64,000 nt of DNA, from assembly GCA_963774265.1 (NCBI GenBank), contig CAVZDU010000005.1:160001-224000 (forward strand), written 5' to 3'. The stretch comes from an uncultured Chloroflexia bacterium (GTDB lineage: Bacteria; Chloroflexota; Anaerolineae; CG2-30-64-16). Numbering within the stretch: the stretch's first letter is position 1; each line of letters starts with the position of its first letter. The notes beneath the pieces were generated by a model. The model had not been told where the DNA came from. It worked only from the letters and a program-made list of their open reading frames with translations, and ran no database searches. Made by a program: the position numbers and the translations under genes. Below are positions 24,387-35,641 of the stretch, piece by piece.

Positions 24387-25181
24387 TCAGGCCGGCCAGT
24401 TTTCGCCCCGCATGAGACTGCCGGCCCACCGGACCGGCGTGGCAAGGGTGTAGAGGGTGGTGCGCACGGCCGCATTATGCCAGACATTTCGCCATTGCGC
24501 CCATTGCACCCTGGGGTCGACAAGTTGGTTTTGTTGAGACACTTCGCCGGTGACACCGAAGTGGGCCGCCAGGTTCTTCAGCGTCCCATGCCAGAACCGG
24601 TCCTCGTTGGGACCTACCACGCGCAGCCGGCTACCCAGCTCCCAAATCGGGTCGCTGGCTCGAATCAAGGCCTGCATCTGAACGACCGGTCCATCTTCGC
24701 CCGGCTCCGCGCTGAAGGTATTCATACCGGCGAACATGTGGCCCTGGGGTGTCATGAACGAAAACGATTCGTCGTCCGAATAGATCACCAGGATGCCGGT
24801 CGAGATGATCGGGCCCCCGCCCGGCGCGGTCATACCGCCCGGCCCGGCAAGATTCAGCACGGCCACCTGACCGGCCGCGATGGGACCGTCGGCGCCGTAA
24901 AAACGGTTCCCGGCGGGCCAGAATTTCGCGAAATTGGCCTTCCAGACTTCGATGACTTCTTGTGGCGTCGCTCGCGACCCAGCCAAGGGGATGCGATACG
25001 TCTTCTGCCACATCTGACCGAAGCCGAGCAGCGGCCCCGACAACTGCCGGCCCTCCACGTTCAGGTTGACGGCCGATCCCGGAATTGCCGGCGCCGTAAG
25101 CCTGGTGACCGGCTGCGCCCAGTTGCCTGCCGAGCGTTCGTTGGTCGTTGTGCTCGCTTGTTTCTCATTCTGCCCCATCAT
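24387..25181 (-). CDS. Conserved hypothetical protein (possibly DUF1990-like), in an operon with the STAS genes
   Basis: Well-formed ORF packed between STAS and oxidoreductase; GFGQMWQKTY, FSFMTPQGHMFAG. Confidence 0.7.
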   Translation of the reverse strand: MMGQNEKQASTTTNERSAGNWAQPVTRLTAPAIPGSAVNLNVEGRQLSGPLLGFGQMWQKTYRIPLAGSRATPQEVIEVWKANFAKFWPAGNRFYGADGPIAAGQVAVLNLAGPGGMTAPGGGPIISTGILVIYSDDESFSFMTPQGHMFAGMNTFSAEPGEDGPVVQMQALIRASDPIWELGSRLRVVGPNEDRFWHGTLKNLAAHFGVTGEVSQQNQLVDPRVQWAQWRNVWHNAAVRTTLYTLATPVRWAGSLMRGENWPA

Positions 25182-25221
25182 GTTTTCCCCCGTCCTGGCC
25201 TGCCTCGGCCATCCTGCATGG

Positions 25222-25572
25222 TCACGCAGCCGCGACGGCGGCAGCTTCATCGGCATAGATGCCGATCGCCTTATCCAACTGCGTTAACTCGAAGATCTGC
25301 TTGTAGTGATCGGTCAGCCCGTAGGCCAGCAGCTTCTGGCTCAGCCTCTTCGCCCGGATAAGCATCGTGACCAGGAGGCCGATCCCGGAACTGTTCATAT
25401 AGTCCAACCCGGTGAAGTTGAGCACGAGCGCCTTTGCGCCGCCATCGCAGGCCCGGCCGTACGCTTCCATCAGCGCAGCTTCGGCCTGGTTGGTGACTTC
25501 GCCCCGGATGTCCAGAATCGCTGTCCGCCCGTTTGGCTGGCGAACGTGAATGTCAATCTTACCTTGTGCCAT
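25222..25572 (-). CDS. STAS-domain anti-anti-sigma factor
   Basis: LVLNFTGLDYMNSSGIGLLV...IFELTQLD; RBS GAGGAGG. Confidence 0.93.
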   Translation of the reverse strand: MAQGKIDIHVRQPNGRTAILDIRGEVTNQAEAALMEAYGRACDGGAKALVLNFTGLDYMNSSGIGLLVTMLIRAKRLSQKLLAYGLTDHYKQIFELTQLDKAIGIYADEAAAVAAA

Positions 25573-25584
25573 CTCAATACCTCC

Positions 25585-25938
25585 TCAGGACTGCGGTACG
25601 GCCAGCGCGCTGGCCTCATCCGCATAGATGCTCATGAAATCGGCCAACCGGGTGATCTGAAAGATCTCCTGGTAATGCGGGCTCAACCCGTAGACCGACA
25701 GGCGGCGCCGCGCTTTACGCGCGCGGGCGAGGAGCCCGACGATCAGTGCGATGCCGGTGCTGTTGATGTAGTTCACGCCGGTGAAGTTCAGCACAATGCC
25801 CGGCGGGTTGGTCGATTCGGCCTCGGCGTACGCGCTGCTCAAGGCTTCATCAGCCCCTCCGTTGATGTCGCCCTTCAAATCGATGATGGCCGCGTCGCTC
25901 TCCTGTCGGATGCTGGCGCTAAAGTGCATGTCAGGCAT
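25585..25938 (-). CDS. STAS-domain anti-anti-sigma factor
   Basis: IIDLKGDI, IVLNFTGVNYINSTGIALIV...IFQITRL. Confidence 0.93.
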   Translation of the reverse strand: MPDMHFSASIRQESDAAIIDLKGDINGGADEALSSAYAEAESTNPPGIVLNFTGVNYINSTGIALIVGLLARARKARRRLSVYGLSPHYQEIFQITRLADFMSIYADEASALAVPQS

Positions 25939-27556
25939 TGGACCCTCCCTCGGCCGCGGCCAGGTTGACGATCAGTTCCACTGTGTGGTGTTGCTCATCC
26001 GCGCGGACGTTCATTTCGTCCACCATGTTTTGGATCAGGAACAGGCCCCAGCCGCGCGGCGACTGCAGCCCCTCCAACTTCGCCTCTAGATCCGGCAACT
26101 CGGCCTCAGGGATCGCGGCGCCGCCTCCGTGGTCGGTGACGTCCACCCGCAGCGAACGATCGCCCCTGAACACCGTGATCTGGGCTGGCGTGTCGCGCCG
26201 GTACTTGTTGCCGTGCTCCATCGCGTTCATGGTAGCCTCAGACACGGCGGTCTTGAGCCGGTCTGCCTGAGTGACAGGGAGATCAAAGCCGGCGATCACG
26301 TCCGCGACCCGGTCCATCGCCAGCCGCTCATTGCCCGGCTCGCTTGGGATCTCGAACCTTGCGACCTCACGCCAGCCTTCGCCGTCCTTCTTTGCTTCAG
26401 GGAGGGGGAGCCGTTCGAGCACGACAAAGGTCACGTCGTCCTCCTGTTCCCAGCCGGGACCCGTGAAGTCCGCCAGTGCGCCGCGCAGATGGTCGATCAG
26501 CTCCTGCCCGCTGCCGAGGCTGCACGCCATTTCACGCAGCCGGGGGAAGCCGAACATCTCGCCCTGTGGGTTGTGCGCCTCCACCAGGCCATCGCTGTAG
26601 ACCAGGATGCTCTCGCCCGGTCCCAGCATCGCTTCGGTCTCGTCATAAGCCATGTCAGGCAGCAGGCCGAGCGGCATGCCGGTGGCCCGCAACTCGATCA
26701 CCGCTTCGCGCGTGCACTTGGCAGGTAAGTTGTGCCCGGCATTGGCGAAGATCAGTCGCCCCGTGAGGGGATCCAACACGCCGTAGAGGCAAGTCACAAA
26801 CATGTTCGAGGGGATATCGGGACAGAGCAGGTTGTTGACCCGCTCCAGCACCGCGGCCGGCGATGTGGGATATTGCTCGGCTGCCAGGCGCAGCATCGTG
26901 CGCGCGGTGGCCATCACCAGCGCGGCCGGCACACCCTTGTCGGTGACGTCTGCCTCCACGAAACCCAACTTGCCGCCGGGCAGCTCTATGAAATCGTAAA
27001 AATCGCCGCTGACCGCCAAGGCCGGCTGCCAGTGGGCTGCGATCTGCCAGCCGGGCAGTGCGGGCACGTCCTTCGGCAGCAACGTCTGCTGGATCACGCG
27101 CGCCACCCGGAGCTGCTGCTCCAGCCGCTCACGAGCCTGCGTCTCGACCTGCTGCTGCCGGACGAGTTGGGCCACCCGCACCGCGGGCGCAGCCTGGCTC
27201 GCGAGATCGGCCAACAGCTTGCGGTCATCCGCCGAGTACTCCTGTTCGCTCAGACGGGGACCGAGATTAACCAGCCCAACCAGCTCGCCCTGGCTTACCA
27301 GCGGCAGAACCACGACCGCGCCGTCCGCGCGCAGCCTGTCCAGTGCGGGCGAATCAAGCCGCAGCTTGCTCACCTCGACCGGTCCGGGCGCGCTCTGCAG
27401 ATAGGCGAGCAGCGGGTCGTTCGGCGCGATGTCCAGGTCGAGTCGCGTGACGGCCGTCGCGGGCGCCTTTGGTTGGGCCGGCCGCTCATCGGCAGGCGCA
27501 GCGGTCTGCTCTTTGTCTTGCGTTCGCCGCTGCCAGAGCGACTTGATATTGACCAT
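25931..27556 (-). CDS. Partial GAF + SpoIIE/PP2C phosphatase + RsbW-like HATPase kinase fusion
   Basis: LPLVSQGELVGLVNLG...DDRKLLADLASQAA (GAF C-terminal part); SGDFYD, DVTDKG, YSDGLVE, EDDVT (PP2C); EATMNAMEHG, DHGG, GWGLFLI (kinase); RBS GGGGAGGAGG. Confidence 0.93.
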   Translation of the reverse strand: MVNIKSLWQRRTQDKEQTAAPADERPAQPKAPATAVTRLDLDIAPNDPLLAYLQSAPGPVEVSKLRLDSPALDRLRADGAVVVLPLVSQGELVGLVNLGPRLSEQEYSADDRKLLADLASQAAPAVRVAQLVRQQQVETQARERLEQQLRVARVIQQTLLPKDVPALPGWQIAAHWQPALAVSGDFYDFIELPGGKLGFVEADVTDKGVPAALVMATARTMLRLAAEQYPTSPAAVLERVNNLLCPDIPSNMFVTCLYGVLDPLTGRLIFANAGHNLPAKCTREAVIELRATGMPLGLLPDMAYDETEAMLGPGESILVYSDGLVEAHNPQGEMFGFPRLREMACSLGSGQELIDHLRGALADFTGPGWEQEDDVTFVVLERLPLPEAKKDGEGWREVARFEIPSEPGNERLAMDRVADVIAGFDLPVTQADRLKTAVSEATMNAMEHGNKYRRDTPAQITVFRGDRSLRVDVTDHGGGAAIPEAELPDLEAKLEGLQSPRGWGLFLIQNMVDEMNVRADEQHHTVELIVNLAAAEGGSNA

Positions 27557-27586
27557 CGAACCTCCTCCCCAATCGGGGCATTACCC

Positions 27587-27616
27587 TGTAGAGACGTTGC
27601 ATGCAACGTCTCTACA
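27587..27616. repeat. Perfect 30-bp GTAG-type REP palindrome
   Basis: tgtagagacgttgcatgcaacgtctctaca is its own reverse complement. Confidence 0.9.
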
Positions 27617-27629
27617 AACCTACATCCGT

Positions 27630-27675
27630 AGCATAGCGTCCCCGCGTCCGCCGGGCGTTACGGGAACCGTTACGG
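27630..27675 (-). promoter_or_regulatory. Repeat-operator promoter 1 (phosphatase-STAS operon)
   Basis: Minus strand CGTAACG-n5-CGTAACG-n5-CGGACGC-n8-TATGCT. Confidence 0.75.
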
Positions 27676-27725
27676 CCCCCAAAGACATTTGTTGTATGAA
27701 TGTATCGGATACCTGGCCACCAGGT

Positions 27726-29183
27726 CTATCCGATCCCGATTGACTCACGACCCGTTTCGTTCAGCCACACGCTTACGTCTTCCGGCTGCATCGTCTCCCG
27801 CACGACGCGCGCCAGCTCGCCGGTCAGCGCGTCCAGGTCTGTCTCGTCGCGTGCAACCGTCGCGAACCAGGCGAGCACTTGCTGCGCGTCGTACTTGCGG
27901 CGGAAGAAGCGCCGGTCGACGAAATCCTGCACGCGGCGCCGCAGCGGGCTGAACAGCGCCGCGATCGCCAGGGTCGACGCAACGATGGCGACGGGCGACT
28001 GCGCTCCTGTTGCGCCTCTGAAAAGCTGCTGCAGCACCAGCACGCTGCCGTAGAATGCCAACGCGAGGAGGGACGTGACAACTGCGTAAACCAGCGTGCG
28101 CCGGATGATGACATCGATGTCGAACAAGCGATAGCGCGTGATCGCGACAGCCAGGCAGACGGGCAGCAGGATCAAGAGCCAAAGCATGTCCGCTCCAGCG
28201 CCTGACAGCGTTCCCCGCTGGACGACGATCACCAGCATCAGCATGAAGGGTCCGCCCAACCCCAGGCCCATGCCGAGCGTCATCCAGCGCAGTTGCGCGC
28301 GGGCGATCGGATCGCGCAGTGTCAGCCAGTTGTGAATTAGCGTCCCAAAAATCGACGCGACTGTCAGGGCGATATACAGGCCGAAGCAAACGAATGCCAT
28401 TGACGTCCACAGCGGACTGGCCGTGGTGAGCTCCAGATGGCCGAGAACCAGGGTCGTCAGGATCGCGAAACTGTATAGAACAGCGGGCAACAGGCGCGGG
28501 AAGCGCCGGAGCGGCGCCTTGACCACCGGGAAAGCGAGCGGCAACTGGATTAACGAGGCGAAGAAGAACCAGAACCATGAATAGCCAAAAACGTTGGTAG
28601 CAAGCTGGGCCAAAAATGGAAAGGTCGACTGATAGAGTGATGAGACCGTGAAACCTAGCCACGAGACCGCGAAGTAGTAGGAGAAGATCAGAAACAGGTA
28701 GCGGGCGCCCAGGTTTCCCGGCCGCACGAAGAAGGCATACCCAGCTACCAGCACGATGACCAGCGAGACGATTAGTTCTCGGGGTTCCTCCCTCAGAGAA
28801 TCGAGGATGTTGACCAGCGGCGTGGTGGCGCGAAGTTGAATCAGCGGAACAAGGAGTTCCATGGTCTGCCCGTCCCGCTCGACCGTGTAGCGCACGGTTC
28901 GCCCGACGCGCAGATCGGGTGGAAACGGCGGCGCACCCTCCGGGATCAGACCTTGACCCTCGATGGCCACCACCCGGTCGCCGGGTTGGAGCACCGATGG
29001 CCGGCCCGTCAGGTTCGCTTCGGCGACAAAGGCCCCGAAACGGCCATCGGCCGAGCCATAGCGCCAGCCGTCTTGCGGGAACTGGTACACGTAGAGGCCG
29101 AACGCAATGAAGACCACGAGCCAGCCAACCGATACGGCGAGTGTCAGCCAGGCGCCGGCATCGAAACGGCGTTCATCTCTCAT
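27726..29183 (-). CDS. Membrane sensor-like protein 1: PDZ domain + multi-TM + conserved partial-GAF tail
   Basis: PDZ-like [12 protein letters not shown]...YTVERDG; tail [17 protein letters not shown]...[19 protein letters not shown]...[30 protein letters not shown]; ATG overlaps the upstream TGA. Confidence 0.88.
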
Positions 29184-30688
29184 CAGTTCACGCCCTTGAC
29201 CTGGTCCAGGACCGCGGCTTCCTCGCGCTCGCGCCGTTCCCACTCGGCCGGCGGCCGGCCCAACGACCGCCACTCGGGCGCCAGCGGCATCACCCCCAGT
29301 TGATCCACGATGCGCCGCGCGGCCAGGCCCAGGATCGCGTTATACGTGGGGTAGGCGATCTGCAGCTCGGCGAGTTGTTCCGCCCACATGTCGGCGGCCA
29401 TCCCTGCCGCGACGATGTGGACGATCTCGAGCGCCTGGTCACCCACCACATGGGCGGCGATCAGCCGGTGCGTCTCCCGCGAGACGATCAGCTTGCAGAA
29501 GCCTTCGGTGCGGCCGTCGATCACCGCGCGATCCATGTCGGCGTACGGGACGGTGGAGATCGCGCAGTCCAGCTGCTTGCGTGCTTCCTCCTCGGACGGG
29601 CCCACGCTGGCATACTCGGGTTCGGTGAAGCCGCCGTGCGGGACGATTCGGGCGGAGGCGTCCTGCCGTTGACCCGCGCCCAACACGGCATTCTCCGCCG
29701 CGAGGCGGGCCTCCGCGCCTGCGGTCTGCACCAGCATGATGCGGCCCGTGATGTCGCCCGCTGCGAAGATGTGCGGCGCGGAGGTGCGCATAGTCTCGTC
29801 CGTCTGTACGTACCGGCCGTCCGTCTGCACCCCCGCAGCGACGAGGTTGAGTGATGCCACGTTGCCGAGCCAGCCGGTCGACATGATGACGGCCCCGGCA
29901 CGCACAACGCGTCCTTCTCCATTGTTGGTGTAGTTTAGCGCCAGTCCATCTGCGGCGCGCTCGATCGATTGGATGCCGCTGATACCTGTGACCACGGTCA
30001 TGCCGCGCCGGGTGAAAGCCGCTGTGATGGCCGCGGAGATGGAGTCGTCTTCGGCGCGCAAGATGCGCGGCGCGACTTCCAGCAAAGTGACCTGTGCGCC
30101 GAAGGCATCGAAGATGCTCGCCAGCTGGCACCCGGTCGCCGCGCCCCCGACCACGGCGATCGAGCGGGGCAGCCGGTCCAGGCGCCAGATGTCGCTGTGG
30201 GTCAGGCTGAGTTCCTCGCCGGGAAAATCCAGCCGGCGGGCGCGGCCACCGGCGCACAGGATGAAACGTCGCGCCTGGACTCGCTGGCCGCTCTCGCCCA
30301 GTTCGATTGTGTGCGGGTCCACGAAGCGGGCTGCACCGGCCGGTGCAAAGACCTGGACGCCGGATGCCTCAAGGTGTGCGGCAAGCTGCTTCTTCTCGTG
30401 CACCTCGTACACGATCTCTTGCGTGCGGGCGAGGAGGCGCTGGAAGTCGAGCTCGGGGTCGGGCAGCGTGATGCCGTACGCGGCGTACTGCCGCGCGTTG
30501 CTCATCAGCCGCGCCGCGTGCGCGAGCACGCGCGTGGGCACGCACCCATCGTTGGTGCAGGTTCCGCCCAACTGCCCCGCCTCGACCAACGCCACGGACG
30601 CGCCCAGCTCGCGCGCCCGCAACGCCGCGGTGACGCCCGCAGGCCCGCCCCCAATCACGCAAATGTCGACCATCTCGCTCATCTCCAC
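29183..30688 (-). CDS. Pyridine nucleotide-disulfide oxidoreductase (dihydrolipoamide dehydrogenase/MerA family)
   Basis: VIGGGPAG, redox disulfide [25 protein letters not shown], dimerisation domain with YPT in place of HPT. Confidence 0.92.
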
Positions 30689-30702
30689 ATCAATCTGCCC
30701 CT

Positions 30703-30736
30703 ACGATAGCCTGCTCGCGTCCGCAAATCGTTACGA
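30703..30736 (-). promoter_or_regulatory. Repeat-operator promoter 2 (oxidoreductase-sensor 1)
   Basis: Minus strand CGTAACG-n5-CGGACGC-n8-TATCGT. Confidence 0.7.
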
Positions 30737-30748
30737 AGTCGGCCCGAA

Positions 30749-31990
30749 TCACGTGCGCTTTCCGTCCGCCGGCCGCAGCCACACATCGGTTTTTGCCGGC
30801 TGGATTGTCTCTTGAACCGCGTGCTCCAGTGCGCCCGATAGGGCGTCCAGGTCGGTTTCCTCGCGGGCGACCTTTGCGAACTGCGCCAACACCCGCTGCG
30901 CGTCATACTTGCGGCGGTAGAAGCGCCGGTCGACGAAGTCCTGCACGCGCCGCCGCAGCGGGCTGAAGAGTGCGGCGATGGCAAGGGTGGAGAGGACGAT
31001 GGCCACGGCCGACGTCTCGCCGGTCGCGCTGCGGAAGACTTGCTGAAGCAAGACGACGACGCCGAAATAGACCAGCGCCAGGAAAGCGGACAGCGCCGCA
31101 TAAACCAGGGTCTTGCGGATGATCAGATCGATGTCGAACAGCCGGTAGCGCAGAATGGCGATGCCAATCGCTACGGGGATGAGCAAAATGGCCAGCGCAA
31201 ACAGCAGATTCACGACATAGCCAACCAGGCCATTATTCAGCCCCTCGAGAGGCAAACCGGGCACATACACCGCGGCGAACAGGCCGCAGGCGTAAAGCAG
31301 CCACTTGATCTGCTGTCGCTCAACAGCAGCTGCCCGGCGATATCGGACGAACAGCGCAGCTACGCTGCCCAACGTCAACACACCGAGGCCAATGGACCAG
31401 GGCACCATGAATAGATTGCTCTCGAGCGGCCCCGAAGGAATGAAGCCGATCGGATTAGCGAAACGCAATTCGCTTTTTGTCGGGTGCTGCATCACGTCTA
31501 CGAACAGCGTCAGGAACGTGAAAACCACACACATCGTGAGGGCGAGATAGATGACCCAGCGCCAACGCGGTGAAGGGGGCCTGCCCGTCGGAAAGAGCAG
31601 CGGGACGAGAAGGATCGAAAAGATGACCGGCAGCCACGACCAGCCAGAGAACCAGAGCGCCATGATCTGGGGAGGGCCGGGCGACGTCGCTTCCGAGATT
31701 TGGGATAGGGATCTATCGGCGAACCACGCCAGCACGGAAGTGACGGCGGGAATCATCAACAACGAACCGAGCGAATTGCGCGGCTGGTTGGAGACGAGCA
31801 GGGCAGCCAGAATCGCAAACTCAATCGGTAGCAGTTTCCACAGCAGGTCACCGGCCTGTTTGATGAGGTTATCCCCCGTGTTTCCCTGGATGGTCCCTTG
31901 GACCAGATCGCTGCCGACGGTGAAAAGTGTGGCGATGACGATGATCGCGGACAGCATCCAGGCCAGGATCGAGCGGGTTCTCGGATTCAC
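30749..31990 (-). CDS. Membrane sensor-like protein 2: multi-TM + partial-GAF tail
   Basis: PRNSLG, LLFPTGRPPSPRWR, ERQQIKW; same tail ending REETDLDALSGALEHAVQETIQPAKTDVWL; GTG 31990 after GAAGGA preferred over ATG 32032. Confidence 0.88.
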   Translation of the reverse strand: MNPRTRSILAWMLSAIIVIATLFTVGSDLVQGTIQGNTGDNLIKQAGDLLWKLLPIEFAILAALLVSNQPRNSLGSLLMIPAVTSVLAWFADRSLSQISEATSPGPPQIMALWFSGWSWLPVIFSILLVPLLFPTGRPPSPRWRWVIYLALTMCVVFTFLTLFVDVMQHPTKSELRFANPIGFIPSGPLESNLFMVPWSIGLGVLTLGSVAALFVRYRRAAAVERQQIKWLLYACGLFAAVYVPGLPLEGLNNGLVGYVVNLLFALAILLIPVAIGIAILRYRLFDIDLIIRKTLVYAALSAFLALVYFGVVVLLQQVFRSATGETSAVAIVLSTLAIAALFSPLRRRVQDFVDRRFYRRKYDAQRVLAQFAKVAREETDLDALSGALEHAVQETIQPAKTDVWLRPADGKRT

Positions 31991-32013
31991 GATTGCGTCC
32001 TTCGTTTGTCCGC

Positions 32014-32633
32014 TTAAGTGTTTCGAAGCCATACATCCACCCTGCCGGGCTGCACGGTCTCCTGCACGACGCGCGCCAGCTCGCCCGTTATGACATCCAG
32101 ATCGGTCTCGTCGCGCGGGTCACGGCGAAGCCGGCCAACACCTGCTGCGCGTCGTACTTGCGGCGATAGAAGCGGCGATCGACGAAGTCCTGCACCCGGC
32201 GGCGCAGGGGGCTAAACAGCGCCGCGATCGTCAGGGTCGAAGCAACGATCGCGACCGGCGACTGCTGCCCACTGATCCCTGTGAAGAGGTTCTGCAGCAG
32301 GACCACGCTGCCGTAGAAGACGAACGCGACATACAGGCGGAACCAATCGCTGGCGCGACGCCAGACGAGCAGGAACAGGATCGCCGACGCCAAGCCGAAG
32401 CCGAGGATGTCACGCACCAGTTGCAGCCAGCCCACCGTATCCGCCGGCCAGCCCAGTTGCGCCAGCCCTGCCTGCGTCTGCTCGAACGTCCAACTATCAT
32501 TCGGCGCGAACTCGCTGAGATGTCCCGGCAGGTACGCTGGGAAGCGGATCGTGCCGACGATCGTGACCGCGATCATCGCCAGGAAGATCCCCATCACTGC
32601 CCACCGCGCGGCGGGCAACGCGAAACGCGTCAT
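32014..32633 (-). pseudogene. Membrane sensor-like protein 3, internally deleted; 1-bp indel near 32118
   Basis: N-terminal TMs are joined directly to [25 protein letters not shown]; the shifted frame completes [33 protein letters not shown]. Confidence 0.7.
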
Positions 32634-32727
32634 TGTGGCACGCTCTTCTTGTGCGTCATTATCGGCTCATGCCTCACTCATACCTCCGTGCGCAATCCAG
32701 ACACCCACCGTGCAGAACCTGGCTGCG

Positions 32728-33684
32728 TCACGGCAGCGTCTTCAGGTACGCCTGGACCGCGCGCAGGTCATCGTCGCTCATGGTCTTGCCGATGTTCTTC
32801 CACGGCATCCCTTCGCCCATCGGGCTCCCGTCGATCCGGCGTCCCTCGCGGAAGACGGCCAGGAACTGGGCCTCGCTCATGCCGGCGGCGAACGGCTTCA
32901 GAGGAGGCCCGGGCGGCACGAAGGAGTTGGGCGGCACGCCGTCCAGTTTGACGCCATGGCAGTCGGCGCAACCGCCGATGGACGACCAGGTATTCGCCGT
33001 ACGCCGCCGTGGGACCGGCCGGCGGCGCGGCCACCGAGCCCACGGGCGCCTGGGCGCTGGTGGGGAACAGGCCCGCGCCCAGGAAGAGCGCGGCCAGGAC
33101 GTTGAGGTTGCGCGCCGGCTGCGGGTTCTCCACCGCGGGCTGCGAGCGCAGGTACGCCACCAGCGCCTGCACATCGGCGTCGCTCAGGTTGCGATAGGCC
33201 TGCGACGGCATGACGACCAGCGCCCGGCCGTCTTGGTCGATCCCCTCGCGGATCGCGCGCACGATCTCGCCGTCCGTCCACCCCGGCAGCGGCCCGCCGG
33301 GCGTCAGGTTGGGTGCGTACATGACGCCAAGAGGCGGCCCGCCCGCGATGAAGTTTTCGATGCCGCCGCTGAGCGGCAGCTCCTGCGCCGGCGCAGTGGC
33401 AGTCGGCGCAGCCCCAGGCCAGCTGTGCGCCGCGCGACGATCTGCTCGGGCGTGCCCGCGACCTGGAGCTCGGCGACCGGGTTTGCGTGGCGCCCTTCCA
33501 GCTTGACGAGACCGATCACGGCCACAACAGCCGCGGCCGCACAGACCAGGGTCAGCAGCCCGGCCAGGATAAGCCCAGGCGCCTTGACCCAAATGCGTCG
33601 CGCGGCCAGCGCCCGGCTGAAGAGCCAGGCGAACAACACGGCGAGCAGGACGATCACCAACAGACTGATGATGTTGCCGAACAT
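32728..33684 (-). CDS. Membrane-anchored di-heme cytochrome c (several frameshifts)
   Basis: Two N-terminal TMs; two CADCH motifs (~33400 and ~32960); APNLTP, WTDGEIVRAIREG, MPW, SDDDLRAV.AYL. Confidence 0.85.
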
Positions 33685-33728
33685 CAGAACCTCCTCACAG
33701 ACTGAATCTCATCGCTCAATGTATCGTC

Positions 33729-33772
33729 ATCATGGCCTGCCGGTGTCCGCGAATCGTTACGGCAACCGTTGC
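33729..33772 (-). promoter_or_regulatory. Repeat-operator promoter 3 (cytochrome c-sensor 3-sensor 2)
   Basis: Minus strand GCAACG-n5-CGTAACG-n5-CGGACAC-n8-CATGAT. Confidence 0.7.
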
Positions 33773-33829
33773 CGCGCCGCGATTCGTTGCATTCTTCCGG
33801 CTCGGGCATCGAGCGCAATGGTGTGCCCG

Positions 33830-35078
33830 TCATTCGTGTGCAATCCAGACACTCACCGTCTTCGGCTGCACCGTTTCTTGCATGGTGCTCAACAGCGCAT
33901 TTGTCAGGGTGGCGAGGTCGGTCTCATCGCGCGCGACCTCCGCAAAGCCGGCCAATACCCGCTGCGCGTCGTACTTGCGGCGGAAGAAGCGACGGTCGAC
34001 GAAGTCCTGCACGCGGCGACGGAGCGGGCTGAATAATGCGGCGATGGCCAGCGTCGAGGCCACGATCGCGACCGGCGATTGCTGGCCGCTGATGCCTGTA
34101 AAGAGCGACTGCAGTATGACAACGCTGCCGTAGAAGACGAGCGCAAGCAAGGCAGTCACTACGGCATAGACTAGTGTGCGGCGGATGATGACATCAATGT
34201 CCCAGAGCCGGTAGCGCAGAATGGCAAATGCAAGTGACAACGGCAGGAAGGCCATCGCAATCAGGCCGAACTCCGTCCCAAATCCGGTGGAGCTGCCAAC
34301 CTGGTCGTTGATGGCGCTCAGCCCAAAGAACAGCGCGAATCCGTAGACAAACCATTTGGTTTGGAGGCGTTCCTGGGACGTGGACACGCGCGCGTAGCGG
34401 TAGATCTGGCAGCCCAGAATGAACGGGAAGACGACGAAGATCACGCCTTGGAGAACGCGGAGCCCCTCCTCCCAAAGGGGAACTGCGGGGGCGATGCCGG
34501 GAAGTGCGACGGCCAGTGGGGCCAACAACTGGCCGGCGAAGTGCATCACCGCATAGATTGCCAGAGGCCAGCGAGCCCAGCGCGGCACGGCCCGACCGTT
34601 CGGGAACAGGAAGAAAAAGAGCACGAACAAGGGCCACGAGATTGCACGGATTTCGATCCAGAAGGGCGGCACCAGCCGCGCCACCTGCATGGGCTCGTAC
34701 AGGGGAAACGCCGCCAGGAAGAGCATGACGTGGGCCGTCAGCCAGGTGAACCAGTGGGCGTGCGCCCGCCATAGCACGATCGCGCCCACCAGCGTGAATG
34801 TCAGGGCGAAGAAGAGCGCGACGGCGGAAGCATAAACGGCGTATGTGGAGGGTGACATGCCGCGCGCGGGCCGCGGCGCCCAGGATTGTCTCGTTGCTGA
34901 CACCGCTGTTGACCCCTACCTGGTAGGGGATGACGGTCAGTGTTCCGGCGCGCCGAACGTAGCCGGGGATGCTCGCCAACCCGAGCGCAAGGCCCAAAAG
35001 GTCCGTGACGATCAGGAACGCGGAGGCGGCACGGAGCCACCAGTTCACATCGCGCCGGCCGTCGTGCCTTGTATGCAT
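33830..35078 (-). CDS. Membrane sensor-like protein 4: multi-TM + partial-GAF tail; frameshift near 34875
   Basis: FLFPNGRAVPRW, QIYRY..ERLQTKW; tail ending RDETDLATLTNALLSTMQETVQPKTVSVWIAHE; RBS GGGGAGGAG. Confidence 0.85.
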
Positions 35079-35191
35079 GCTAGTTCGTTTCTCCTCCCCT
35101 GTCCGGATCATCACGCCGATCTGAATAATTATTGTACTGATATTGTGAACATGATACGGTGAGCCTCACTGCTATCCGGCCCCCTTGTGTG

Positions 35192-35641
35192 TTACCGCCG
35201 CGCCATCAACCATCCCAGCGTGGCGCCGTAGATCAAGTGGGCGGCCGTCCAGCCCCAATCCGGCAGGGCGGCCAGCCCCGCGCCGAGCTCGCTCGCCATG
35301 AGGCCGCGCGAAATGAGGAGGAGGATGATCCCGTACACCAGCCCGGCCAGAACCAGCCGGCTTCCCAGGCGGCGCGCGACCGGCGCAATGAGGAGGCCGA
35401 AGATGGCACCGTAAACGCCCGCGCTGGCAAGATGCGCCAGTGTGCCGGCGAGGGCAGAACCCGTAAACGTGGGATCGAAGCGCGCCAGGACGAAGTCGGC
35501 CTTGAGCCCCGCAAACAGCCCGGCGACGATCAGCACGATCGCCATCATGACGCCCCCAACCACCCCGCGCAGCAAGCCATCCACGGCAGCGTCTGCTACG
35601 CCGGATGGCGACTTGGTCAAGGTTCTTTCGTTTGTCATCAC
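35192..35641 (-). CDS. Small 4-TM hypothetical membrane protein
   Basis: Four hydrophobic helices with two intramembrane His (LAHL, AAHLIYG); RBS GGGAGGG. Confidence 0.75.
   Translation of the reverse strand: MMTNERTLTKSPSGVADAAVDGLLRGVVGGVMMAIVLIVAGLFAGLKADFVLARFDPTFTGSALAGTLAHLASAGVYGAIFGLLIAPVARRLGSRLVLAGLVYGIILLLISRGLMASELGAGLAALPDWGWTAAHLIYGATLGWLMARR

Follow-up and report, generated by a model that had tools for sequence, protein, structure and literature searches.

The gene cluster and its membrane proteins

The minus strand of the window (the whole stretch of DNA that was analysed, 64,000 nucleotides) carries four membrane-protein ORFs, T1 to T4, together with a soluble output enzyme and two STAS genes (Table 1). 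T1 to T4 end in a common C-terminal module of about 130 residues, which includes the last two transmembrane (TM) helices. The consensus of the tail is ...(F/Y)RRKYDAQ..ARDETDL...QP....VW(L/I), and the stop codon lies 11, 8, 3, and 3 residues past VW(L/I) in T1, T2, T3, and T4, respectively. In the rest of the 5.5-Mb genome, no tail copy was found except for one distant relative on contig C10. The initial annotation had described four minus-strand sensors with the same tail. The tail and the stop 3-11 residues behind it were found as described, but the common part had been drawn too short, and T3 and T4 are frameshifted.

Table 1. Coordinates of the features of the cluster in the window
Feature	Coordinates	Strand	Description
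STAS1	25222..25572	-	Anti-sigma-antagonist-like, 116 aa, last gene of the cluster; Pfam STAS E 5.7e-13
STAS2	25585..25938	-	Anti-sigma-antagonist-like, 117 aa; Pfam STAS E 1.5e-13
Soluble output enzyme	25931..27556	-	541 aa; leader, GAF C-terminal part, long linker helix, PP2C/SpoIIE, RsbW-like HATPase_c_2
Half-GAF module of the enzyme	27152..27436	-	Residues ~41-135; two short helices, beta-hairpin (82-88, 91-98), last GAF helix from 109
Palindrome	27587..27616	.	Perfect, 15+15 nt, in the T1-enzyme gap; dispersed genome repeat
T1, tail-only membrane sensor	27726..29183	-	485 aa from ATG at 29183; open frame to 29273; tail (PLRRR... to stop) 27726-27947
T2, tail-only membrane sensor	30749..32032	-	Up to 427 aa; tail 30749-30961
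T3, short tail-bearing protein	32014..32633	-	Frameshift inside tail near 32117; stop overlaps T2 ATG
T4, tail-only membrane sensor	33830..35078	-	Main frame 33830-34903; tail 33830-34027

T3 and T4 can be read as tail sensors only across a frameshift in this assembly, and the spans first assigned to them (620 and 1249 nt) are not divisible by three. The first ~70 residues of T4 lie in another frame (34866-35051), with the frameshift near 34866-34868, and a tblastn search of P0007 on T4 placed residues 10-72 in one frame and 71-411 in another. For T3, runs X1 and X4 (two of the four compared) each include a related contig with one extra base behind 32117, which restores the frame.

The sensor parts of T1, T2, and T4 did not match one another by BLASTP at E<1e-3, in agreement with the unrelated N-termini claimed earlier. 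They do have motifs such as FP.GR..PRW in common with the family consensus. The T1 sensor part is 59.5% identical to G244_1, and the relatives of the T2 sensor part are G325_1, G325_2, and G325_4. No Pfam family was matched by the T proteins. A PDZ-like domain had been noticed in one sensor; the N-terminal part of T1 had no Pfam match at E<=5 and reached PDZ chains of the PDB only at weak E values (0.7-1.3), and PDZ families made up 10-21% of the members in its Atlas look-alike clusters (scores 0.90-0.95).

The enzyme matched SpoIIE (PF07228) over profile positions 1-191 of 192 (E 5.9e-48, 163.8 bits, cut-off 25), and this full-length match above the curated cut-off places it among the PPM/PP2C phosphatases. 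We take GDFYD, DVTDKG, SDGL, and EDDVT, picked out by eye, to be the metal-binding Asp motifs. HATPase_c_2 (PF13581) was also matched above the cut-off (E 2.1e-20, 73.5 bits, cut-off 27.4). Because the NCBIfam equivalogs spIIAB and RsbW scored under their cut-offs on the kinase domain, it belongs to the RsbW/SpoIIAB superfamily without being an orthologue of either. STAS1 and STAS2 are single-domain proteins above the STAS (PF01740) cut-off. The NCBIfam model ant_ant_sig matched STAS1 at E 9e-14 (below the model cut-off) and STAS2 at E 3.9e-18 (above it), and the NSSG/NSTG motifs seen by eye presumably contain the phosphorylatable Ser. The partner-switching set of PP2C phosphatase, RsbW-type kinase, and STAS substrates is complete in the cluster, which other genomes have conserved as well.

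The gap between T1 and the enzyme had been credited with its own promoter and palindrome, as signs that this is not one broken gene. The promoter was not recovered, with 0 sigma-70-like sites in 25100-35300. The palindrome is real and perfect, but it has 25 copies in the genome at <=3 mismatches and was found in 0 of the 4 orthologous gaps examined. It is a dispersed repeat and not a specific operator, and gives no argument for a separate gene. The Shine-Dalgarno-like sequence GGAGGAGG lies a few bases 5' of the enzyme ATG at 27556. That the genes are not one broken gene is borne out by the split itself, which has its own stop and start and is conserved over many families in at least two classes.

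GAF parts, one-piece relatives, and the complex model

The GAF profiles matched the enzyme only in part. GAF_3 covered profile positions 44-127 of 129 at residues 37-126, GAF_2 was matched at positions 87-135 (of 136), and the GAF profile at 89-132 (of 133). A whole-length GAF profile (PF01590, PF13185, or PF13492) within one protein was found neither in the enzyme nor in the T proteins. In the AF2 model of the enzyme (overall pLDDT 86), residues 1-40 had a pLDDT of 43-55, as expected from the flexible leader proposed for the phosphatase. The half-GAF alone was modelled as a two-strand hairpin with helices and no full sheet (pLDDT ~90), which is not a complete domain.

Both parts occur consecutively in one-piece relatives, which supports the earlier view of complementary and non-overlapping GAF parts. 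P0123 (947 aa) consists of a TM domain, the tail, a 16-residue linker, the half-GAF, PP2C, and RsbW. In 4 of the 6 one-piece proteins scanned, a Pfam GAF model was matched from end to end, starting at the tail helix and finishing at the ...QAAPA helix. The joined tail, linker, and half-GAF of P0123 reached pLDDT 92.9 and pTM 0.84 with AF2, and Foldseek found 69 PDB matches for this stretch at E<=1e-3, the top ones all GAF (6oap_B, E 1.2e-6). The joined stretch forms a reduced GAF of three main strands, and the enzyme alone holds two of them. In alignment A1 (30 sequences), the linker from ...LWL to DPL... is hypervariable in length. Among the best 150 enzyme representatives, 70 have at least 200 residues before the half-GAF and 29 begin with it. 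A quick tree showed split and one-piece forms interspersed, with at least four changes forced by well-supported branches; therefore, either splits and fusions were recurrent, or gene calls cut short account for some of the "split" database proteins.

The T1-enzyme complex model had an ipSAE of 0.81 (0.78, 0.81, and 0.81 in the runs) against 0.07 for the best control, a pass that may reflect likeness to GAF structures and not binding in the cell, because the two chains are halves of a much-solved fold, and a pair of this kind would be expected to succeed in such a test. Of 80 solved complexes, 58 attained the same mark, as did 2 of 110 mismatched pairs. The runs had at least 79% of contacts in common, and the partner pLDDT was at least 72. 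The tail strand was placed beside a strand of the enzyme hairpin, and the tail helix lay against the enzyme's last GAF helix, with modelled contacts at enzyme residues 91-103 and 110-134. The predicted arrangement is the one proposed from the sequence for tail and phosphatase.

Conservation and covariation were analysed in 147 tail-enzyme pairs from 44 genomes. In tail residues 476-504, the mean entropy was 0.67 for core contacts (n=12) and 1.51 for the others (n=17; p=3.5e-4). In the half-GAF, the values were 0.37 (n=13) and 0.76 (n=80), respectively (p=0.008). Conservation thus falls on the core contact positions of the complex model. Among the top 50 covarying column pairs, 15 were interface-by-interface against 6.7 expected, and 15 of 5000 random relabellings reached 15, an enrichment that relatedness inflates. 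The 8 listed contact pairs with both columns variable showed no excess covariation (p=0.69), in a test that is low in power because the interface is nearly invariant. Genome-specific tail residues (DFV, NWI, and EVL) lie in a helix segment that is off the interface in the complex model.

We consider it probable that the cluster is a partner-switching module with its GAF input domain split between genes, and that the sensor tail completes the fold of the enzyme. The genes might also cooperate without completing a fold. The half-GAF would then stand on its own, for instance as a homodimer with a single sheet built from two hairpins, and the tails would be a dimeric helical stalk; the sensors would act through another surface or protein, or would tether or sequester the enzyme. 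The pLDDT of ~90 allows that the half-GAF might be stable alone or as a homodimer, and the usual dimer contacts of GAF domains are the first and the last helix. Dimer models of this kind are described in PMC12143880. The listed contact pairs without excess covariation also agree with this explanation, as do the many tail-only genes that lie distant from the enzyme gene in other classes (six are scattered over one contig in G552). We nevertheless regard it as unlikely. The isolated half has two strands only, the one-piece relatives place the tail strand and helix in the half-GAF's own fold, and tail-only proteins retain just the face that is buried in that fold. The docking model also gives the one-piece geometry, with controls at or below 0.07.

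Distribution and gene order of tails and enzymes

The tail-only family is large. At E<=1e-3, 7988 of 8000 scored candidates were matched, and 113 of the best 120 end 44-71 residues past the DRRF.R..YD motif. In the class sample of 401 genomes (tail E<=1e-30, enzyme E<=1e-90; the count takes in the unpublished G341), the tail was found in 45 genomes and the enzyme in 45; 43 had both, 2 the tail only, 2 the enzyme only, and 354 neither. In the phylum sample of 401 genomes, the tail was found in 24 and the enzyme in 29, with 23, 1, 6, and 371 genomes in the same four groups. Intermediate tail matches that were checked were one-piece proteins or contig-end fragments. Within the window's genus, G003 and G007 have both tail and enzyme, and G001, G002, G004, G005, and G006 have neither an enzyme orthologue nor a tail above 43% identity.

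The many-to-one ratio proposed earlier was also observed. Each genome has 1 to at least 13 tail-only genes per single half-GAF enzyme, and a strong half-GAF of the enzyme type was single-copy in 5 of 5 genomes checked. The two samples together contain 68 genomes with tails (G000 is included twice), and in one of these the tail-only genes had no partner. This genome, G689 (91% complete, 7 contigs), has two tail-only genes, and neither the enzyme (at E<=1e-70) nor a half-GAF (at E<=1e-3) was found in it. The recurrence of the tail-enzyme pairing in many Chloroflexota genomes suggests that interchangeable sensors plug into one enzyme.

The gene order was also conserved. In the usual cluster, the sensor genes (1 to at least 13 of them) come first and are followed by the enzyme gene and a pair of STAS genes. 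L002, L003, L005, L019, and L021 have the complete series of tail gene, enzyme, STAS2, and STAS1, and in G325 the enzyme, STAS2, and STAS1 follow seven tail-only genes. L006 runs from a tail gene through the enzyme into a single STAS frame, where its sequence stops. In L004, the enzyme is followed by both STAS genes, but no tail gene lies directly upstream of it. In G473, 13 tails lie on one contig. Among the 150 tail matches listed of a total of 204, a tail was found on the same contig in at least 33 of the 43 split-enzyme loci, and <=1500 nt upstream on the same strand in at least 23.

Tail-only proteins could instead use their conserved TM helices and tail to associate among themselves or with one-piece TM-GAF proteins, which they would modulate or block as dominant-negative subunits, and common ancestry would then be their only link with the split enzyme. 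The two TM helices within the conserved module would suit such pairing; the G689 genes have no detected split enzyme, and the genomes also carry one-piece TM-GAF proteins with weaker tail matches. We hold this to be very improbable, as the presence or absence of the tail tracks the split enzyme inside single families and genera, including the window's genus, and in the cross-tables of both samples, and the tail gene lies directly upstream of the enzyme in more than half of the loci. Least credible is that the tail-only genes are non-functional, either remnants of one-piece genes (by decay or assembly error) or cassettes recombining between conserved 3' ends: the frameshifts in T3 and T4, the G689 copy that adjoins a transposase-like ORF, and related-metagenome contigs that fuse the tails of different paralogues (e.g., 27851 joined to 30876) would agree with it, but thousands of intact family members have the same end point, 7 to 13 intact genes stand in arrays in well-assembled genomes, tails keep 45-79% identity between classes and sensor parts diverge to ~23%, each gene has its own start and stop, and the enzyme gene is never tail-bearing in split genomes.

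Proposed mechanism and comparison with known systems

The gene anatomy, the one-piece relatives, the co-occurrence and clustering of the genes, and the structural complementarity in the models are the basis of our preferred reading, a GAF domain split between sensor and enzyme. What we infer beyond them is the physical binding of tail and enzyme, the direction of regulation, the signals sensed, and the target downstream of the STAS proteins. A tail-only protein would consist of a variable multi-TM sensor and a conserved cytoplasmic end, made up of the juxtamembrane helix and of helix 1 and strand 1 of the GAF domain. The start of the enzyme would provide the rest of the reduced GAF, with two short helices, the beta-hairpin, and a last helix that continues into the phosphatase linker. 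According to the model, a docked tail may complete the GAF fold on the enzyme, its strand pairing with the hairpin strand ELVGLVNLG and its helix packing against the last GAF helix. Docking would recruit the enzyme to the membrane. The conformation of the sensor could then be passed through the helix bundle and the linker to the balance of phosphatase and kinase acting on the two STAS proteins, and one enzyme would be common to several sensors.

We lean slightly towards natural fragment complementation as a signalling interface of Chloroflexota, in which arrays of up to at least 13 membrane sensors per genome, each with the first helix and strand of a GAF domain, compete for or exchange one soluble enzyme, and the enzyme is a complete and regulated receptor only with a sensor plugged in. 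If true, this would be a modular many-to-one input stage, with the logic of chemoreceptor arrays built on a split fold. A literature search found no description of split-GAF plug-in sensors, in line with the initial annotation, to which none was known.

The same logic of variable sensors with a conserved docking part leading to one output enzyme is found in chemoreceptor arrays, where the conserved cytoplasmic tip of many MCPs docks on CheA/CheW, and in the stressosome with its RsbR paralogues. In those systems, a folded domain docks on a folded domain, whereas here the docking domain is incomplete and the families are unrelated. In chaperone-usher pili, donor-strand complementation completes a strand-deficient fold with the strand of another polypeptide, as engineered split-protein reporters also do and as is proposed here. 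These are structural assemblies or man-made tools and not a natural sensor-to-enzyme interface.

PrsK (XrtA/PEP-CTERM histidine kinase, TIGR02916) has the same TM-GAF order in a one-piece kinase; its output is a histidine kinase and here it is PP2C/RsbW. The T proteins matched PrsK weakly on profile positions 10-348, and enzyme residues 77-130 on positions 407-461. They are not members of this family, because they scored 13-18 bits against a cut-off of 300. In Chloroflexota and other phyla, uncharacterised one-piece TM-GAF-PP2C(-RsbW) proteins (e.g., P0123, P0142, and P0164) have the same multi-TM sensor family, tail, half-GAF, PP2C, and often the RsbW-like domain in the same order, and are 50-59% identical to the enzyme. 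They are one polypeptide with one sensor per enzyme, whereas here the break falls in the hypervariable loop that follows GAF strand 1, and a single enzyme gene stands against 1 to at least 13 sensor genes.

Mycobacterium tuberculosis Rv1364c, named in PMC12143880, is a fusion of PAS, PPM, anti-sigma kinase, and anti-anti-sigma parts. Like the enzyme here, it joins a PPM phosphatase to an RsbW-like kinase, but its PAS input is complete and its STAS part is fused, and here there is a partial GAF and two separate STAS genes. The same paper discusses Clostridioides difficile RsbZ, Streptomyces coelicolor OsaC, and Bacillus subtilis RsbU as GAF/PAS-regulated PPM phosphatases of partner switching, with an N-terminal regulatory domain, a long helix to PPM, and STAS dephosphorylation as output, as here. 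In RsbU, as in our proposal, a separate partner, RsbT, binds the N-terminal part and switches the enzyme on. The regulatory domain is complete in these phosphatases, and RsbT has a kinase-like fold of its own; in our proposal, the missing secondary-structure elements of the domain would come from the partner, an integral membrane sensor.

Gene cluster and coding state of the sensors

T1, T2 and T4 are multi-transmembrane (TM) proteins; none of them matched a Pfam family, and pairwise comparison of their sensor parts gave no match. T1-T4 share a C-terminal module, which consists of RYRL(F/W)DID.IIR.TLVY, two TM helices and a post-membrane tail with the consensus (F/Y)RRKYDAQ..LA.FA..AR(D/E)ETDL..L...L.....ET.QP....VW(L/I). 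The initial annotation described four sensors that end at a common point soon after this tail, and this was borne out: the stop codons lie 3-11 residues past VW(L/I), in T3 and T4 only when read across a frameshift. Besides a distant relative on contig C10, no additional tail copies were found in the window's genome (G000).

Genes and repeat of the tail-enzyme cluster (window positions)
Feature	Position	Strand	Remark
T4	33830-34903, N-terminal part up to about 35078	-	first (upstream-most) in cluster
Cytochrome-c-like gene	32728-33592	-	between T4 and T3
T3	32014-32633	-	
T2	30749-32032	-	
Pyridine-nucleotide-disulphide oxidoreductase	29183-30688	-	between T2 and T1
T1	27726-29183	-	
Perfect 30-nt palindrome	27587-27616		
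Enzyme, 541 aa	25931-27556	-	downstream of T1
Two STAS genes	25585-25938 and 25222-25572	-	downstream end of cluster

The frameshift of T3 lies near 32117, within the tail, and that of T4 near 34866-34868, past the first ~70 residues. An extra base behind 32117, which restores FAVTARDETDL, was present in one contig each of two of four related sequencing runs; the contigs of these runs come from relatives at 90-99% identity and are informative only for the 32117 indel and the joints. An assembly error at 32117 is possible, since several other 1-nt differences lie nearby in the related contigs. The cytochrome-c-like gene is split over two overlapping frames, and single-base gaps separate related contigs from it at 32982, 33395 and 33437. 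Combined with the frameshifts of T3 and T4, these gaps suggest that the local assembly has indel errors, or that the genes are truly decaying. Related metagenome contigs also join 34014 to 34869, skipping 854 nt of T4 with an endpoint at its frameshift site, and connect tails from one T gene to another (27851-30876, 28108-31138 and 27851-32170). Recombination between conserved tails, other paralogues or assembly joins at repeats could be the source of these joins. T3 runs into the start of T2: its final codons and stop (VDVWLRNT*, 32014-32035) overlap the T2 ATG at 32032.

The gap between T1 and the enzyme had been credited with its own promoter and with a palindrome as evidence against a single broken gene, and this argument was left unsupported. 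No sigma-70-like promoter was found in 25100-35300 (0 sites vs 1.4 expected), with the reservation that the consensus applied may not fit the promoters of Chloroflexota. The palindrome (TGTAGAGACGTTGCA/TGCAACGTCTCTACA) is a dispersed repeat, which may be REP-like: across the genome its 28-nt core recurs at 25 places when up to 3 mismatches are allowed, and contig C1 accounts for 15 of these. Given these copies and its absence from the orthologous gaps examined, a role as operator was rejected. Readthrough from T1 into the enzyme was also rejected, since the gap of 169 nt is not divisible by three and, of the several sensor genes, just one neighbours the enzyme gene.

The two parts of the GAF domain

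Pfam places a SpoIIE/PP2C domain at residues 193-382 of the enzyme (E 5.9e-48) and an HATPase_c_2 domain at 403-529 (E 2.1e-20), whereas the enzyme's N-terminus matched only the back part of a GAF domain (GAF_3 positions 44-127 of 129, on residues 37-126). The AF2 model, based on 27 split homologues, had a pLDDT of 86. Residues 1-40 form a disordered leader (pLDDT 43-55), in agreement with the flexible start that had been proposed. The half-GAF that follows has short helices (48-55 and 70-77) and a single beta-hairpin (82-88 and 91-98), and the long helix 109-159 continues into the phosphatase. As had been expected, the N-terminus modelled alone gave one hairpin and helices instead of a complete sheet-containing domain. 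A point against the split-GAF reading is that the half-GAF could be stable on its own or as a dimer.

The enzyme was used to search 1.84 billion representatives, and the best 150 relatives were sorted by upstream length: 29 start with the half-GAF, 70 have 200 or more residues before it, 15 are intermediate and mostly fragments, and 36 do not cover the half-GAF start. One-piece relatives carry TM sensor, tail, linker, half-GAF and PP2C in a single chain. The first part of one of them, P0123 (947 aa), includes ETWQPTHTSLWF and is followed by a 16-residue linker, then SSDPLLAH...PLVSQGELIGLLNLG...QAAPALRVAQL, PP2C and RsbW. In alignment A1, which holds the P0123 stretch and 29 one-piece proteins, the linker past LWL varies widely in length and, judged from the alignment, is a natural place for a cut. 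This variable loop, which leads from GAF strand 1 to the DPL helix, occupies columns about 716-775 of A1, and P0210 and P0219 lack the middle of the GAF domain entirely.

A Pfam GAF model matched over its full length, from the second helix of the tail to QAAPA, in four of the six one-piece proteins scanned. The AF2 model of the joined tail and half-GAF stretch (pLDDT 92.9, pTM 0.84) runs in the order juxtamembrane helix, GAF helix 1, strand 1, two short helices, hairpin and long last helix. It had 69 PDB matches at E<=1e-3, the best of which were all GAF domains (6oap_B at 1.2e-6). The proposal that tail and half-GAF are complementary, consecutive pieces of a GAF domain is thus supported by their joining in one-piece relatives and by the modelled GAF fold.

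Split and one-piece forms were mixed in a quick tree of 108 of 151 rows (those not covering the half-GAF start or the PP2C end were excluded); the tree was largely unresolved, and no count of origins can be claimed. Mean tail and half-GAF identities of the two forms come from sets chosen by different queries and allow no conclusion. P0204 (390 aa) carries a tail of the tail-only type and the half-GAF enzyme in the same chain, with an enzyme part 68% identical to that of the window, and the enzyme of genome G225 (G225:C80:28607-30205) lies within a 773-aa open frame. Both may be re-fusions or gene-calling artefacts.

Enzyme residues 30-150 and the last 74 residues of T1, each with its own alignment, were modelled as a complex. 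As anticipated, the tail strand was placed beside the hairpin, with an ipSAE of 0.81 (runs 0.78, 0.81 and 0.81) against 0.07 for the best of three controls; for comparison, 58 of 80 solved complexes and 2 of 110 mismatched pairs come up to the ipSAE mark. At least 79% of the contacts agreed between runs, and the partner pLDDT was at least 72. Enzyme residues 94-99 lie against tail strand 500-504, helix 477-491 of the tail lies on enzyme helix 110-134, as does the last part of the juxtamembrane helix, and the geometry is that of the one-piece fold. Because the two chains make up a single fold for which many related structures are solved, the model pass speaks for complementarity and not for binding in the cell.

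Conservation, a measure that does not depend on the model's score, was determined over 147 tail-enzyme pairs from 44 genomes. Core contact positions were conserved in tail residues 476-504 (entropy 0.67 vs 1.51 for the rest, p=3.5e-4) and in the half-GAF (0.37 vs 0.76, p=0.008). Helix 477-491 has conserved positions every 3-4 residues with highly variable ones between, and tail-only proteins have nothing else past the membrane for this conserved face to pack on. The covariation signal across the interface is weak: only 8 of the 25 listed contact pairs had two variable columns, with no excess (p=0.69), and among the 50 strongest covarying pairs 15 were interface-by-interface vs 6.7 expected.

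Distribution of tail and enzyme genes

The tail-module search returned 7988 proteins at E<=1e-3 of 8000 candidates scored. The 120 tail-family proteins listed had no Pfam domain, and their named members came from Anaerolineae and other Chloroflexota. Among these best 120, 113 end 44-71 residues past DRRF.R..YD, i.e. 1-28 past VWL, and 5 more with motif variants also end just past the tail by eye.

Co-occurrence was determined in two 401-genome samples, restricted to genomes with a completeness of 85% or more (tail E<=1e-30, enzyme E<=1e-90). The class sample had 45 genomes with the tail and 45 with the enzyme: both in 43, tail only in 2, enzyme only in 2 and neither in 354. The 43 take in the unpublished G341 (42 without it) and G211, probably a one-piece case given the 763-aa frames of its enzyme matches. 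Of the tail-only genomes, G031 shows the enzyme as a partial match on the tail's contig and G330 has its tail match within a 1433-aa frame; in the enzyme-only G180 and G388 the enzyme matches are on short contigs of fragmented assemblies. The phylum sample, mostly from other classes, had the tail in 24 and the enzyme in 29 genomes: both in 23, tail only in 1, enzyme only in 6 and neither in 371. The enzyme was in a 544-621-aa frame in 22 of the 23 tail-bearing genomes other than G689. Four of the six enzyme-only genomes (G531, G545, G559 and G780) have one-piece forms, in which tail and enzyme share a frame; G756 has a weaker tail-only gene, and the sixth is the unpublished G717.

The predicted co-occurrence of tail-only proteins with the split enzyme was therefore found in both samples, and no probability is attached to it because related genomes are not independent. 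Presence was patchy within families and also inside the genus of the window, with tail and enzyme genes present or absent together. Tail-only genes in genomes that lack a half-GAF partner were not common: G689, the sole tail-only genome of the phylum sample, has two such genes, one beside a transposase-like ORF, with no enzyme partner detected.

The order tail gene, enzyme, STAS2, STAS1 is conserved among close relatives. In the class sample, a listed tail shares the contig with 33 of 43 split-enzyme loci and, at no fewer than 23 of the 43, is located up to 1500 nt upstream of the enzyme and in the same orientation; these counts are lower bounds, with 150 of 204 tail matches listed. G325 (4 contigs) has seven intact consecutive tail-only genes followed by the enzyme and two STAS genes, and G244 has an array of eight or nine. 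Within about 15 kb, locus L051 (G473:C176:490-15572) carries 13 tail-only genes on one contig and L050 (G465:C52) carries 11. Residue counts after the tail are lower bounds at the ends of such stretches, which were cut at match borders. Many tail copies in other classes are away from the enzyme gene, and a strong half-GAF of this type occurred exactly once per genome in all five genomes checked.

Tail identity across classes is 45-79%, and sensor-part identity averages 23% among 45 aligned family members picked by tail similarity. The T1 sensor part is 59.5% identical to G244_1, and sensor types are common to several genomes (T2 with G325_1, G325_2 and G325_4; T4 with G244_4 and G244_5). The first ~22 tail residues contain genome-specific positions in G000, G244 and G325, including (N/D)WIDRRF.RKKY and QEVLDRRFFRKKYD: DFV in the window, NWI/DWI in G244 and EVL in G325, all outside the modelled interface. 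The sensor parts are nevertheless orthologous between genomes, and this pattern suggests that the juxtamembrane helix of the paralogues has evolved in concert. A second pair type lies on contig C10 of G000 (91179-92798 and 92802-94634, both minus strand), where a membrane protein is directly downstream of a membrane-bound PP2C protein. Its N-terminal part resembles that of T1, it shares the TM module, and it ends in a small but complete GAF-like part without an output domain. Pairs of this type also occur in G012, G004, G006, G007, G024 and G003.

Proposed split-GAF signalling and known partner-switching systems

We believe that a split GAF, in which interchangeable sensors complete one enzyme, is the best-supported explanation and is likely to be correct. 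From the models, the pairing of tail and half-GAF is one of structural complementarity, and physical binding is a prediction. Against this stand G689 without a partner, the distant tail copies, the mixed quick tree and the genome-specific residues off the interface. If the split-GAF explanation is true, a sensory domain shared by interchangeable membrane sensors and one enzyme would be a new design principle of signal integration, and the large uncharacterised tail family would have a likely role. The system would also offer a natural case in which to study fold complementation and signal transfer from GAF domains to PPM phosphatases, and could be a ready-made scaffold for modular synthetic sensors.

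In the usual description of bacterial signalling, sensor domains are folded units that are fused to output domains or dock on them. Full-text literature searches, judged mostly from abstracts, found no description of a natural split GAF or of such a system. Known partner-switching sets consist of a PPM phosphatase, an RsbW-like kinase and a STAS protein, and the cluster here has all three. According to PMC12143880, phosphatase and kinase are fused in Rv1364c, as in the window's enzyme, and RsbZ and OsaC have GAF-type input, which the window's enzyme resembles. The components are ordinary; the unusual points are the division of the GAF domain between genes and the number of sensors per enzyme.
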